A stretch of DNA of 64,000 nt from the NCBI GenBank assembly GCA_047601445.1, contig JASGJH010000001.1, positions 1,152,001 to 1,216,000 on the forward strand. The letters run 5' to 3'. Each line of letters begins with the position of its first letter. Positions within the stretch are counted from its first letter, which is position 1. The DNA comes from Myxococcales bacterium. GTDB taxonomy: Bacteria > Myxococcota_A > Polyangia > Polyangiales > DASUME01. The notes beneath the pieces were generated by a model. The model did no database searches and had not been told where the DNA came from. It saw only the letters and a program-made list of their open reading frames with translations. Of the stretch, positions 58,128 to 63,763 are shown in pieces. Both the position numbers and the translations under genes were made by a program.

Positions 58128-58877
58128 TCATGGGCATGTAACACCCGCTTCGTTCGCTCGGCACGCTTCGAGACGACGCAAGAGAGCTCGATAGAAGGTG
58201 TCCAGGATTTCCGGTCTGGGCACTCGGAGCTCATTCCATTCGAAGGCAGTCCGGAGCACGTTGCGGATGCGGATGAGCTGTTCGCGGCGCGCGAAATGCA
58301 GCTCGCACAGCGAGACCGTGCGCGTCTTGGTGGCGACGCCGGGACCCGGCGCTGCCGTGTCGGGTGGATAGCCGTACTTGTCGGAACCTTCCCGAAGCGC
58401 CAGAGTCACGGACTTCCCATCGTCTGACAGCGTCATTTGGTCCACCAATGCGTTGTCCATGCGCCAGTACCCGCTGTTCTCGTGGGGCGTCAGCTCCAGG
58501 CGATAGCCACTGGCGAGCTCGTGGCGAAACGCGTCGCTTCGCGGAGCGCGCTTGGTGTTGAGGAGGAGGCCGTGGATCGTCCCGGCCTCGATGCGCTCGA
58601 TGTGTTGTGACGGGAAGTAGTGGGCCGACGAAAGGCGCAGATTGCGGTTCCAGAAGAGCAGGTGAGGGTATTTGTGATCATCGAGCGGAGGGGCCAGAGT
58701 GTAGGTGGTGATCAACTCACGACCCTGCGGGCAGATCTGTTCTGCCTGGGCCAGGGCCTGGGTGCTCAGGGCGGTGCCCTGAGGAAACGTCAGGTAGACA
58801 TCGTGGGATGGCCCGGACTCCGTGCAGCTCGTGACGAAGAGCGCGAGGGCGCCGATACCGATCGAGACCGGATTCAT
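58128..58877 (-). CDS. Hypothetical lipoprotein
   Basis: MNPVSIGIGALALFVTSC lipobox. Confidence 0.55.
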   Translation of the reverse strand: MNPVSIGIGALALFVTSCTESGPSHDVYLTFPQGTALSTQALAQAEQICPQGRELITTYTLAPPLDDHKYPHLLFWNRNLRLSSAHYFPSQHIERIEAGTIHGLLLNTKRAPRSDAFRHELASGYRLELTPHENSGYWRMDNALVDQMTLSDDGKSVTLALREGSDKYGYPPDTAAPGPGVATKTRTVSLCELHFARREQLIRIRNVLRTAFEWNELRVPRPEILDTFYRALLRRLEACRANEAGVTCP

Positions 58878-58985
58878 GTGCTGTTTCCCCTGTTCAGAGA
58901 CGAAGTTCGCGTGGTGCGGGATCCTAGGGGCGGGTTGCCTTTTTTGTTTCCGACCCGACTGGTGCGCGATAGGTTCGCGGTTCCC

Positions 58986-59459
58986 ATGGTGACCAGAGGC
59001 GGCCAAGTGCGAAGAGTGATAGGTCTGGCCGCGCTCGCAGCAGTTGTGACTGGCTGCATGCGCATGTGGCACTGGATTGAGGGCGTCGAGGAGCTGGGCG
59101 CTGGATACGTGTTCGACGGCACTGACCTGATTGTGCATATTCAGACGGATCACTACGAGGGGGCTGGCACGATCGCCGTGCCGCCGAAGGTGATCGCGTA
59201 CGCCTACGACGACAAATTTGCGCTCGTTTCGTCGAAGGATTCTTGCAGCGGGGCCGTCGTGTACTGGCTGATTTTGAAGACGGAGCCGTCGACGCAGCAA
59301 GCCATCGTCAAGGTCGGCTTTCCGAGTGGGCCTGCGTGGGCCAGCGCGTGCATCCCGCCGTCGCACTACAAGTTCTCGAACGTGCTCGGCCCGATGACGC
59401 AGGCGACATTTAGTGAGGCTCGGACGCAATACGCCGTTCCAGCGGAGCTTGGTTTGTGA
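58986..59459 (+). CDS. Hypothetical lipoprotein, DUF3997-like
   Basis: VTGC lipobox; ELGAGY..VPPKVIAYAYDDKFALV..YWLI. Confidence 0.5.
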   Translation: MVTRGGQVRRVIGLAALAAVVTGCMRMWHWIEGVEELGAGYVFDGTDLIVHIQTDHYEGAGTIAVPPKVIAYAYDDKFALVSSKDSCSGAVVYWLILKTEPSTQQAIVKVGFPSGPAWASACIPPSHYKFSNVLGPMTQATFSEARTQYAVPAELGL

Positions 59460-59725: not shown

Positions 59726-60706
59726 ATGCCAACCATGATGAAAGCCGCGCTCGTCACCCGTTATGGGAGCGCAGACGCCGTTCGCCTCGGCGAACGGCCC
59801 ACCCCGGTTCCCAAGGCTGACGAAGTCTTGATCCGTGTGCACGCCAGCACGGTAAGTGCCGCTGATTGGCGCATACGCAGCGCTTCCGTGCCCCGCGGCT
59901 TCGGCCTTTTGATTCGCTTCGTGTTCGGCTTCCGCGGACCGCGTCAGCCCGTGCTAGGCTCGGAGCTTTCGGGCGTCGTGGAATCCGTCGGCGCGCGCGT
60001 CAGCCGCTTCCGTCCGGGCGACCGGGTCTTTGCGTTCCCAGGCGTCAAAATGGGCGCCCACGCGGAGTACCTCGCGATGCCTGAAGACGGTAAGGTGCTG
60101 CCCATTCCGGCCGGTCTCAGCATGGCGGAGGCGGCCGCGATCTGCTTCGGTGGCACCACGGCGCTCTACTTCTTGCGCGACAAAGCCAAGGTTCAGGCGG
60201 GGGAGAAGGTGCTGATCGTCGGAGCGTCAGGCAGCGTGGGTAGCGCCGCAGTTGAGCTCGCCAAGCACTTCGGCGCCGCGGTCACGGGCGTGTGCAGCGC
60301 TGCCAACCTGGAGTTCGTGCGCGACCTGGGAGCGGACCACGTCATCGACTATCAGGTGCAGGACTTCACGCAGGACGGCCAGCGCTACGACGTGATCATG
60401 GACTGCACCGGCACCGCGTCCTTCGCACGCTGCCGCGATTCGCTGACGCCTGGAGGACGGCTGCTCTTGGTGGTGGCGACCATGGGCCAGACGCTGGCCG
60501 CTTTGACGCGGAGGCAAGTCATCACGGGTGGCGGGCCCGAATCAGTGGATGACATGGCGACTTTGGCCGAACTTTGTGCGCGGGGAGTCTTTCATCCGCG
60601 GATCGGCGCAACCTTGACCTTCGAGGAGATCGCTCGTGCCCACGCGTTGGTGGAAAGCCAACACAAGCGCGCCAACTTGGTGCTTACGATGCCTTTGTCG
60701 CACTGA
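59726..60706 (+). CDS. NAD(P)-dependent MDR-family oxidoreductase (quinone-reductase-like)
   Basis: GSELSGVV, GASGSVGSAAV, LGADHVIDY; no Zn-binding Cys cluster. Confidence 0.92.
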   Translation: MPTMMKAALVTRYGSADAVRLGERPTPVPKADEVLIRVHASTVSAADWRIRSASVPRGFGLLIRFVFGFRGPRQPVLGSELSGVVESVGARVSRFRPGDRVFAFPGVKMGAHAEYLAMPEDGKVLPIPAGLSMAEAAAICFGGTTALYFLRDKAKVQAGEKVLIVGASGSVGSAAVELAKHFGAAVTGVCSAANLEFVRDLGADHVIDYQVQDFTQDGQRYDVIMDCTGTASFARCRDSLTPGGRLLLVVATMGQTLAALTRRQVITGGGPESVDDMATLAELCARGVFHPRIGATLTFEEIARAHALVESQHKRANLVLTMPLSH

Positions 60707-60713
60707 TCGCCGA

Positions 60714-60749
60714 GAGCGCTTCGCAACCTGCGAAGCGCTCTACCTTTAT
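60714..60749 (+). terminator. Probable intrinsic terminator
   Basis: Perfect 12-bp stem GAGCGCTTCGCA-ACC-TGCGAAGCGCTC just after the stop codon, followed by TACCTTTAT. Confidence 0.6.
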
Positions 60750-61066
60750 GCCCGAAGAGGAAAACGCACCAGGCATTTCAGCAGGTGTTGTGTCGGTTGA
60801 CTTCAGCAGGCTGGATTTCTCCAAGAAGCGAGTTCTCCCCGGGTACGCCGCAGTTCGCAATGTCGCCTTCGCCCCGGGGCGAAACACGGCGTGTCTGGGC
60901 ACGGGTAGGCGTGGGAGACGAGTGTTACCTGGCTGCCGTCCACGCGATCAGAGCTCAATACTGTTGAGCTCGTTGCCCCGGCATATGCGCATGTGCGCCA
61001 AGCCGCTCAGTGGTTTGAGTTGGCACGCGACGACGCACGTGCCCTCGTGCCTCCCGGGAGAGCCGG

Positions 61067-61120
61067 GCGACCCGACATTTCTAAAAACCGCGATCCCGAC
61101 ATCTCTATAAAACGCCAACA
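61067..61120 (-). mobile_element. Orphan terminal inverted repeat of an IS1202/ISNCY-like insertion sequence
   Basis: Minus strand TGTTGGCGTTTTATAGAGATGTCGGG..TAGAAATGTCGGG: TGT terminus plus two TAGA(A/G)ATGTCGGG repeats 24 bp apart; no transposase seen. Confidence 0.6.
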
Positions 61121-61130
61121 CAACCACTTC

Positions 61131-62186
61131 GGAGAGTAGACGCCGGGATCGCTCCCGGGGCCCCTCGCAGAACCGTACGTGCGGCTTTCCCGCATACGGC
61201 TCCCAGCTCAGCGCATCCGCGTCGGGGAAGGGTACAGGTGATGGACGACTCGAGGCTTAGGGATGATGTATCCCTCTTTCCAAAGCTGCAGGAAGCGCGC
61301 CCATGAGAACGACTTGCGCTGACTCCGCCGATTCAGCCACTTAAACAGCAGTTTCGCCGCCTGTCGGAAGTAGGCCCGGAGCGATCCGGAGTTCCCGCTG
61401 ACGCCGTAGTACTGCTCGTAGCCGCGTAGGTGTTGCCGAGCGTAGTCGAGCATGGCGCGCCCACCATCGGTTCGCAGACTCTTCAACCGCTCCTTGAGCC
61501 CCTGCAGCTGCCGCCGCATTCGCTTCGCGTCCGTGCGCCGGCCGACCACGAACTGGCCGGCTTGGCTCTTGGCTGCGTAGTGAGTGAACCCGAGGAAGGT
61601 GAAGGTCTCTGGTCGTGTTCGATTTTCTCGGTGGCAGTGCTGTTGGGCGAAGCGCCCAAAGCGCAGCATCTTCGTCTTGGAGGGTTCAGCCTCCAGGGCG
61701 AACTGACCGAGTCGCGCCACAAGCTCCGAGTGGAACCGCGTCGCGTCTTCCTGCTTCTCGAAGCACGCCACGAAGTCGTCCGCGTAGCGGATGAGCTCGG
61801 CGTCTCCGGTGCAGGTCTTTCGAAAGCGTCCCTCGAACCACCAGTCGAGCACGTAGTGAAGGTAGATGTTCGCGAGCACGGGCGACACGAGTCCGCCTTG
61901 CGGCGTTCCCGTGTTCGTGATCTCGAACGCACCATCGTGCATGACGCCAGCTTTGAGAAACCGTCGCAGCGTCCGCACAAAGTGCGGGTCCGCAATCCGG
62001 TGCTCGAGAAATCGCAGCATGTGATCATGGTTGACCTCATTGAAGAAGCCTTTGATGTCGGCTTCGACGACCCAGCCGATTCTCTGTTACCCGGGCGCAC
62101 GCAAGGCTGGATACCGGGCTCCCGGCTACGGGCTTCCCGGGGAGGAGTCCCACCTCCTAGGCAAACATGTCTTAACCAGTCACTTC
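61131..62186 (-). mobile_element. Group II intron, internally deleted
   Basis: Domain V GAGCCGTATGCGGGAAAGCCGCACGTACGGTTC (61202-61170); DVI with bulged A ending CTACTCTCC; RT/X remnant; about 100 nt of DI-like 5' sequence (GGAGGTGGGACTCCTCC hairpin, CCTTGCGTG..GGGTAAC). The 5' boundary is inferred. Confidence 0.85.
61208..62086 (-). pseudogene. ltrA: Group II intron reverse transcriptase/maturase, 5'-truncated (RT3-7 plus X, no endonuclease)
   Basis: VVEADIKGFF, GTPQGGLVSPVLANIYLH, RYADD, FTFLGF, WLNRRSQ; in-frame TAA at 62089-62087; RT0-2 absent. Confidence 0.9.
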
Positions 62187-62209
62187 GCAGAAGATAGATT
62201 ATGTAAACC
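62182..62209 (+). other. dif: dif-like XerC/XerD recombination site
   Basis: ACTTCGCAGAA-GATAGA-TTATGTAAACC, an 11-6-11 layout resembling dif (E. coli GGTGCGCATAA-TGTATA-TTATGTTAAAT); AT-rich; inner XerC arm reads CAGAA instead of CATAA. Confidence 0.7.
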
Positions 62210-62349
62210 GACGGGGTCGGTAAAGGAAAGCCACGCCGGGCGCACGAAGCGCGAGCCTACGCTATTCGACCTAGTCCATCGTGCATGCGGCATCGGACTT
62301 CCGTCCCGTTGCGGCGAGTCATGTCGCCGATCCATGGTCGGCAGAGAAC

Positions 62350-62982
62350 ATGGCAAACTCGGAACAACCCACAAACCGTGATCTTGAAACCCTCACGACG
62401 CGGCTTGCGCACCTCGAACGGAGGGAGCGCAGACGTCGCAAGCGCGCGTGGACGCTCGCGGGGATAGCGGCACTCCTGTGCGCGGGACTCTGGGCAGATC
62501 GCGCGCTCTCGGAGCCCAACGCGCCCAACGCCAATCGCGGCCATGGCTGGCTCTACTACTTCAACGCTGGTAGCCCGGCGGTGGCCATTCATGTCAACAG
62601 CAACTTCGAGGAGCTCGCAAACAGGATCGATGGTCTCAGCGCAGCGCTGGCTGATACGAACAACGCCGTGAGCTCGCTCGGCGGCAGCCTGGCTGGAATC
62701 GGAGCTCGAACAGGCACGCTTGAGAGCTCCGTGGGTGGACTCTGGGGCCGGCTGAACGGGGGCCTGAAAATAGGCGAGCCCGTAAGGACGAATGGCCTGC
62801 ATGTAGCAGACCAGATCCGGCTGAAGCTCACAGGCGACAAGAGCTCATTTTGCGCGCTCGTCTACGCGAGAAACCTGAGTCAGCCAGACTCGCGTTGCTA
62901 CGTGTCACTCGAAGACGACGGTTGGTACGTCTATTCGAACTGGTACGCTGATTGCGAGGCTCGCTGCGTCTGGGGACCATGA
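62350..62982 (+). CDS. Hypothetical exported coiled-coil protein with a Cys-containing C-terminal domain
   Basis: TM/signal, FNAGSPAVAIHVNSNF motif, heptad repeats, terminal CEARC. Confidence 0.65.
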   Translation: MANSEQPTNRDLETLTTRLAHLERRERRRRKRAWTLAGIAALLCAGLWADRALSEPNAPNANRGHGWLYYFNAGSPAVAIHVNSNFEELANRIDGLSAALADTNNAVSSLGGSLAGIGARTGTLESSVGGLWGRLNGGLKIGEPVRTNGLHVADQIRLKLTGDKSSFCALVYARNLSQPDSRCYVSLEDDGWYVYSNWYADCEARCVWGP

Positions 62983-63022: not shown

Positions 63023-63640
63023 TCACTTGGCCCGGCCGTCGGCCAGGCTCTCGTGTTCGCGCTCCTGGGTGAGACCGCGAGAGCTGGAGAGTTTGGCGTC
63101 CCCGTGCGGATTGGGCTCTGCCACCGAGTCGGCCTGGCTTCCGGTCGGGTCCGCGTCACTGAGCGCGCGACCCGTGGCTTGTGCCTCGGCGAGCGGCTTG
63201 GCGCTCCCGGGCCGTCCATCTGCCAACGTGTGTCCCGAGCCCAAATGAACCGGCGGCTTCGACGCGCTGTCGCCTGCTGACCAGCTCGCGAGGTTCGGCA
63301 GCTCCCGCTCGACGCGGCTCCGGGTCTCGTCGCTGCAAAGACCCATGACGGCCCGCCATGCCAGCTCGGCGTGCTCCTGGGCTCGGGCGCGCTCCACGTG
63401 GGCCGCGCGGGCCACGTCGGCGATCAAGCCGTCCAGCGTCGCGTCATGCGCACCGCTTGCGGGTCGGCACAGCCGTTGTGAAAGCTCGTTTGGAAGCTCA
63501 TCGCTCAGCGTCTCCTTCAGATGTTTCGGCAGGCGCCGGCCCAGCGCATCGAGCGTCGTCAGCAACGCGCGCTCGGCTTCGGCCCGGGGCCATGGGGCGC
63601 TTCGCTGCAAGTGATCCAAAAGTTGCGTATAGACCGTCAT
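63023..63640 (-). CDS. DUF2267-like protein
   Basis: EAERALLTTLDALGRRL..LSDELP; C-terminal TLADGRPGS..NPHGDAKLSS. Confidence 0.7.
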   Translation of the reverse strand: MTVYTQLLDHLQRSAPWPRAEAERALLTTLDALGRRLPKHLKETLSDELPNELSQRLCRPASGAHDATLDGLIADVARAAHVERARAQEHAELAWRAVMGLCSDETRSRVERELPNLASWSAGDSASKPPVHLGSGHTLADGRPGSAKPLAEAQATGRALSDADPTGSQADSVAEPNPHGDAKLSSSRGLTQEREHESLADGRAK

Positions 63641-63763
63641 CGCTTGGGTCCTCCAGCTAGATGGTGGGAACGGCGCGGGCCTACGAAAGTCCGTGGCGAG
63701 CTGCCTGAGTCTTGGCGTGAGCAGCGCTGCGTAGGGAGTGGCCCTCACGACGCAACTCGAGCC

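Follow-up and report, generated by a model that had tools for sequence, protein, structure and literature searches.

A solo left end of an IS1202-family element and a group II intron nested at one dif-like Xer site

The DNA analysed here, referred to below as the window, is a 64,000-nucleotide stretch of a 9,502,601-bp genome assembled as one contig. Towards its right-hand side, the end of an insertion sequence (IS; 61066–61120, minus strand) is followed by five bases of spacer, by five bases of a XerC arm, by a group II intron (61131–62186, minus strand) and by a complete dif-like site (62182–62209, plus strand). To the left of these features, an oxidoreductase gene (59726–60706) is directly followed by a small inverted repeat at 60713–60741, possibly a terminator, and the interval 60742–61060 had no match in relatives. 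To the right, a DUF2267 protein is encoded on the minus strand (63023–63748). The open reading frames at 58128–58886, 58620–59459 and 62281–62982 had no Pfam or NCBIfam match.

On the plus strand the IS end closes with ACA at 61120, and the spacer CAACC (61121–61125) and the bases ACTTC (61126–61130) come next. Two copies of CCCGACAT (family D15) start at 61071 and 61095; they are spaced 24 nt apart and are 79% alike. The copy at 61095 is the inner part of a 26-bp terminal inverted repeat (61095–61120, minus strand), and the other copy marks a second, internal predicted transposase-binding site (61071–61085, minus strand), of the kind that Harmer et al. (PMC10132070) describe for the subgroup discussed below. 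Read inward from 61120 on the minus strand, the repeat consists of TGT, 10 nt and a conserved transposase-binding core that reaches down to 61095, with the second copy of the core 24 nt deeper. The original prediction had described an ACA/TGT end with two internal repeats, 5 bp and then ACTTC, and rereading the sequence returned the same letters. It had also considered that the motif might occur throughout the genome; by BLAST, the motif is single copy.

When the genome was scored with a matrix built from 48 distinct related 26-nt ends, this end was the top site in the 9.5 Mb at 24.6 bits (runner-up 17.3), and it was also the sole strong tandem pair of sites. The matrix is partly circular, as its training ends were drawn with a pattern derived from the window end itself. 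Support that does not depend on the matrix came from an intact IS in another genome (G212:C1:1234453–1235963; L241:4454–5964). This element is 1511 bp long, encodes a 441-aa transposase, carries a 5-bp duplication, and has its left inverted repeat (IRL) 5 bp from a dif-like site. The IRL matches the window at 50 of 55 nt (91%; E 9e-14) and at 24 of 26 nt of the terminal repeat, whereas the right inverted repeat (IRR) matches at 26 of 55. Therefore, the window carries an IRL, the first 55 nt of an element that reads inward from TGT at 61120. The likeness of the window end to a public read extends to about 61060. The transposase of the intact element scores 466 bits on the NF033594 model (cut-off 250), has a glutamine seven residues past the catalytic glutamate (E+7), and is 47% identical to the transposases of 1482-bp Acinetobacter elements. 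The IS1202-type identity given in the original prediction is upheld by this element. A relative of the element at 69% identity (G719; L245) likewise lies 5 bp from a Xer site.

The Tn7-like, IS21 and IS481 families also have TGT ends with repeated binding sites. The window end could, on these shared traits, be a chance likeness or come from an unrelated element that also ends in TGT, and a likeness of the subgroup's ends to Tn7 is stated in PMC10132070. We regard this as extremely improbable and as refuted by the 91% identity over 55 nt to the intact element: against the ISNCY/IS1202 model its transposase reaches 466 bits, but against those for IS481 and IS21 only 102 and 47.

Our results confirm that 61066–61120 is the left end of an IS of the IS1202 family, ISAba32/ISAjo2 subgroup. 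The ISAba32 subgroup of Siguier et al. (10.1101/2022.12.17.520857) and the ISAjo2 subgroup of Harmer et al. (PMC10132070) are the same, and both papers define it by the geometry of its ends. As in that subgroup, the window end has a 5'-TGT terminus, a terminal repeat within the 24–26-bp range, and an extra internal binding site near the end (24 nt inward). It also faces the XerC arm with its left end, at 5 bp from the original outer arm (5–6 bp in the subgroup); the target is likely the chromosomal dif; and it is an IRL-only partial copy, a type that Siguier et al. (10.1101/2022.12.17.520857) report to retain the IRL at 5–6 bp. A DDE transposase of 400–500 aa with Q at E+7 is seen in the intact relative and is absent from the window's genome. 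Target duplications of 5–6 bp are seen in the intact relative and at 15 of 63 assessable loci from the scan described below; at the window the partner end has been lost. The end differs from the published subgroup at IRL position 9, where Siguier et al. (10.1101/2022.12.17.520857) give C as completely conserved and where 40 of the 48 related ends have C. The window end has T, and so does the intact G212 element; this T is a lineage variant and is outweighed by the transposase evidence. Two further differences are the host, which is likely a myxobacterium, whereas the main text of both papers deals mainly with alpha-, beta- and gammaproteobacteria, and the intron that has split the neighbouring XerC arm. 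Thus, with the IS stub an already published dif-targeting subgroup gains a new member, likely myxobacterial, and taken alone the stub is an ordinary IS end.

To see how such ends are placed elsewhere, genomes of GTDB were scanned with a pattern that combined the core of the end with a XerC arm. The scan returned 80 loci, many of them from Acinetobacter and rhizobia, and the pattern imposed both the arm and the 5–6-bp offset. A distance of 23 nt from core to terminus was kept in 78 of the 80, though the pattern permitted 23–25, and a XerD arm, which was absent from the pattern, was present in 66. Transposase sequence read inward from the end at 44 loci, was reversed at one, and was missing at 35, seven of which were too short to judge. 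Among the 63 loci long enough to assess, 15 held whole elements of 1456–1607 bp with 5–6-bp duplications. One of these 15, a whole Acinetobacter element of 1482 bp (L030) whose duplication measures 6 bp, has its transposase reading toward the Xer site and its right end abutting the XerC arm, an orientation that contradicts the published left-end rule.

Because the pattern imposed the arm and the offset, 401 order-level genomes were searched with the end alone, without any Xer letters. This search gave 12 matches in eight genomes, compared with two for a control pattern. Leaving the window aside, six of the matches were left ends whose terminus is intact; one of the six belongs to the whole G212 element. 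For five, one of them with a poor XerD arm, the distance to a XerC arm is exactly 5 bp; the sixth is separated by 5 bp from the end of another IS, an arrangement like the tandem insertions described by Siguier et al. (10.1101/2022.12.17.520857). The count leaves out one match without an ACA terminus (in G012), two right-type ends in G226, the inner site and one truncated end in G212, and the window itself. In two relatives from the genus (G007 and G004), 5' fragments of an IS1202 transposase gene lie 6 and 5 bp, respectively, from the same dif.

Some side observations came from these surveys. At L244:628–680 (G262:C283), two IS ends stand back to back 5 bp apart, the junction of a tandem insertion. 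In one Sandaracinaceae assembly, the same IS recurs beside near-identical dif-like sites with frameshifted transposases (L049, L057, L067, L069, L077 and L086), and this may represent an amplified unit or long-read error.

The rest of the window's IS is missing from the genome, and the remnant status assigned to it by the original prediction is upheld. A transposase was sought there with the NF033594 profile (best E 7e-4, 21 bits) and by tblastn with 12 related proteins (best E 1e-3), and neither search found one; translation inward of the end gave no transposase start. The intact G212 element matched this end alone. A partner end flanked by CAACC, which the original prediction had suggested as a check, was not found in the one-contig genome by BLAST, by the matrix, by a scan for tandem sites or by a motif anchored on the duplication. 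The spacer CAACC is likely one copy of the target duplication, as the intact relative has a 5-bp duplication; its other copy appears to be lost, since no partner was found. As the transposase, the partner end and the second copy of the duplication are absent from the genome, the insertion event can be traced only indirectly.

Instead of being a simple deletion stub, the end could be part of a same-family element that is non-autonomous or a larger composite, with its far end elsewhere in the chromosome. Such an arrangement would fit two-site ends without a nearby transposase in G005 and G008, and the 28 of 80 scan loci that offer at least 700 nt inward of the end and yet lack a transposase. The second end that it calls for is absent from the one-contig genome by all four types of search; one loose motif match at 7,034,144 has two core mismatches and falls outside the top matrix sites. 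We therefore consider a composite element very unlikely and treat the end as a deletion stub.

The original prediction placed the IS end 5 bp from the start of a XerC arm. This stands for the history of the site: ACTTC (61126–61130, plus strand) represents the original outer five bases of the arm, separated from the IS terminus by CAACC, and an intact allele of the arm exists in another record (run X7, below). It does not stand for the present function, as ACTTC is now the 3' exon of the intron and a dead half-site, with a full-site xrs score of −10.7. The complete site lies at 62182–62209 (plus strand), with its XerC arm at 62182–62192, a 6-bp centre and its XerD arm at 62199–62209; the outer five bases of this XerC arm are contributed by the 5' end of the intron. 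It scores 32.0, the best in the genome, and the next site scores 23.2. That second-best site (G000:C1:5873053, minus strand) has a good XerC arm and a poor XerD arm and lies near the GC-skew minimum.

The site at 62182–62209 is likely the chromosomal dif, judging from its sequence and position. It has the 11-6-11 layout, is the single best match, and lies on the plateau of the cumulative GC skew, 93 kb from the maximum at 1,120,880. The genome has both xerC and xerD genes; XerD scores 362 bits, above its cut-off, and XerC 331 bits, just below its cut-off of 335. BLAST matched the site in 11 of 40 relatives, with only eight candidates scored per genome, and in all six relatives whose sites were read the site was the same.

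Between the half-site and the complete site lies a group II intron of 1056 nt. Its domains V–VI match RF00029 at 61131–61204 (52 bits), and its truncated reverse transcriptase (RT)/maturase reading frame (61208–62083, minus strand) gives a partial match of 194 bits to TIGR04416 and is 92% identical at the DNA level to an RT gene in G005. A full-length relative (P0001) scores 342 bits on the same model, over its cut-off. Domains V–VI and an RT/maturase, the features that define a group II intron, are thus both present. A contig from run X1 (record 3) has about 0.9 kb of extra sequence at 62082–62086; therefore, the window intron has been internally deleted, and it lacks the EBS1 region and the N-terminus of the RT.

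As EBS1 is deleted in the window copy, its pairing was taken from relatives. Of 25 related introns, 13 have an EBS1 loop (near nt 213) that exactly matches the six bases before the initial G of the intron. A boundary placed one base later was rejected, as it gave an exact match in 0 of the 25. The intron is therefore assigned to 61131–62186, and the XerC arm is split into an inner six and an outer five bases. By sequence complementarity, EBS1 pairs with the XerC arm in all four full-length copies of the clade, in one of them through a G-U pair.

This clade comprises the nine nearest RTs (FastTree support 0.86) in a tree of 46, which was built from the RTs of the window, G005, four outgroups and 40 of the 80 metagenome loci. 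Every visible 5' exon in the clade group (7 of 7) ends within a XerC arm, at its inner half, compared with 0 of 49 among relatives; G008 and G009, which supply two of the seven, were placed in the group on DNA similarity and not by their RTs. Five of the seven 5' exons are accompanied by a clear, correctly spaced XerD arm and the other two by a decayed one, and the 3' exons of the clade open with the outer bases of a XerC arm. Introns of the clade start with GAAGT, GTAGT or GCAGT, whereas most relatives start with GTTGC or GATGC, and each of the clade variants yields an arm that resembles natural XerC arms. An attP-like element carrying its own dif was also considered for these insertions and dropped, because the central regions and XerD arms differ among them. 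A close RT was found among 301 genomes of the order only in G005. Searches for close intron relatives found none in viral contigs, a best identity of 49% in plasmids, and none in 401 genomes of the phylum at E 1e-95, a search that included no positive-control match.

Xer-exploiting integrative elements such as the CTX phage also insert at dif and leave a complete dif behind. In those elements XerC/D recombination takes place in the central region, whereas at the window the split lies inside the XerC arm, at the splice boundary of an intron. Integrons harbour a lineage, the group IIC-attC introns, whose insertion point is one fixed base in a tyrosine-recombinase site (PMC7923331), and the window intron group shares this trait. 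Unlike those introns, as far as they are described in the text of PMC7923331, the window clade targets the XerC arm of dif-like sites, through a predicted 6-bp EBS1–IBS1 pairing; insertion at TTGT/T of the attC bottom strand does not apply. The 5' end of the clade's introns is G-N-A-G-T-G instead of GUGYG and rebuilds the arm. We found no published report of an intron homing into dif or Xer sites in literature that was mostly openly accessible; PMC6053426, in the text available, mentions group II introns and Xer/dif topics separately. What appears new at the locus is the target of the intron and the nesting of IS and intron, not the IS end. That two unrelated elements converge on one Xer site, as the original prediction had it, is borne out by the IS end and the intron.

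We have proposed a model that orders these events. We believe it very probable that the IS inserted with its left end 5 bp short of the XerC arm in the chromosomal dif, and that the intron then homed into the arm and rebuilt its sequence with its own first five bases. In the first step, a DDE transposase would have inserted the IS with its left end toward dif, duplicating 5 bp, as in the intact relative and the literature. A deletion would then have taken the transposase and the right end; solo left ends are common in the subgroup. In the third step, the intron may have reverse-spliced between the sixth and the fifth base of the XerC arm, counted from its outer edge, a boundary given by the EBS1 pairing of relatives, with an EBS1 complementary to the inner six bases of the arm used for targeting. 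As a result, the outer five bases would have stayed beside the IS stub, and a complete dif would have come to lie about 1.06 kb from there. The two elements would recognize the site in different ways, the IS through a protein or DNA-architecture cue (the cue is left undefined in both papers) and the intron through RNA–DNA pairing. Both elements are now broken, the IS being reduced to an end and the intron internally deleted.

Evidence on the order comes from run X7. One of its contigs (record 5) covers 61095–61135 with three differences and then, uninterrupted by an intron, runs on into the same dif's centre and XerD arm. Although this is a single contig from a different organism, it likely represents the pre-intron state in that organism, which makes it likely that the IS came first. 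Furthermore, as the half-site scores −10.7, it is unlikely that the IS was drawn to it, and had the intron come first, the IS would be expected inside the 5' end of the intron. The order of IS then intron is thus likely, on the assumption that the IS requires a complete Xer site.

It is possible that there were three layers instead: an earlier intron of the same family in dif, an IS that landed 5 bp from the rebuilt arm and hence inside the 5' end of that intron, and a second intron homing, so that CAACC would be bases 6–10 of the first intron. CAACC does correspond to bases 6–10 of the variant in G009, L141 and L166, and the frequencies in the genome of the four 5-mers observed there add up to about 0.5%, a match noticed after the fact. 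However, the variants in G009, L141 and L166 begin with GCAGT or GTAGT, whereas the 3' exon here begins with GAAGT. A second intron copy leaves no trace in the genome, the flanks of the dif sites of intact relatives vary freely, and the spacer match is the one observation in favour. We think this sequence of events unlikely, and keep to an IS insertion followed by one intron homing.

If that order is correct, the IS stub serves as a time stamp. Because elements of this kind keep a constant distance to an intact XerC arm, the stub shows where dif formerly lay, and the splitting and rebuilding of the arm came later. The stub is valuable in that it dates and corroborates the insertion of the intron.

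A second nesting of an IS end and an intron is suggested by run X2. Its record 8 contains a 93%-identical intron, and its alignment starts at 61070 and shows gaps scattered ahead of the arm that add up to 24 nt, a total taken to equal exactly the combined length of the terminal repeat, the 5 bp and two bases of the arm; the suggestion depends on this gapped alignment. On balance, we favour the view that dif-like sites are a shared, re-used landing pad for IS1202 elements and for an undescribed clade of introns that home to the arm through EBS1. The 5' end of these introns would have evolved to rebuild the arm, keeping dif intact for further rounds, with the window recording an IS and then an intron and run X2 apparently a second, independent nesting. 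If this is true, a group II intron targets a chromosome-segregation site by RNA pairing and leaves the site undestroyed, which would add a new class of target to terminators and attC sites and amount to a naturally occurring safe-harbour system for retrohoming. The locus also poses a test of how IS1202 elements find dif, namely whether they insert next to an arm that an intron has rebuilt.

Two minor observations concern other loci. The intron-occupied dif-like sites in G008, G009 and L141 (L141:1900–2200; L020:100–160; L022:6740–6830) share their XerD-side flank; in L141, the 3' end of a further group II intron lies immediately before this flank. At L018:4156–4210 and L019:5619–5671, two-site ends finish with GCA, not ACA, and share the spacer between their sites with the window end; they lie away from Xer sites and without a transposase, and the one in G005 is about 550 bp from a fragment of the RT of the same intron.
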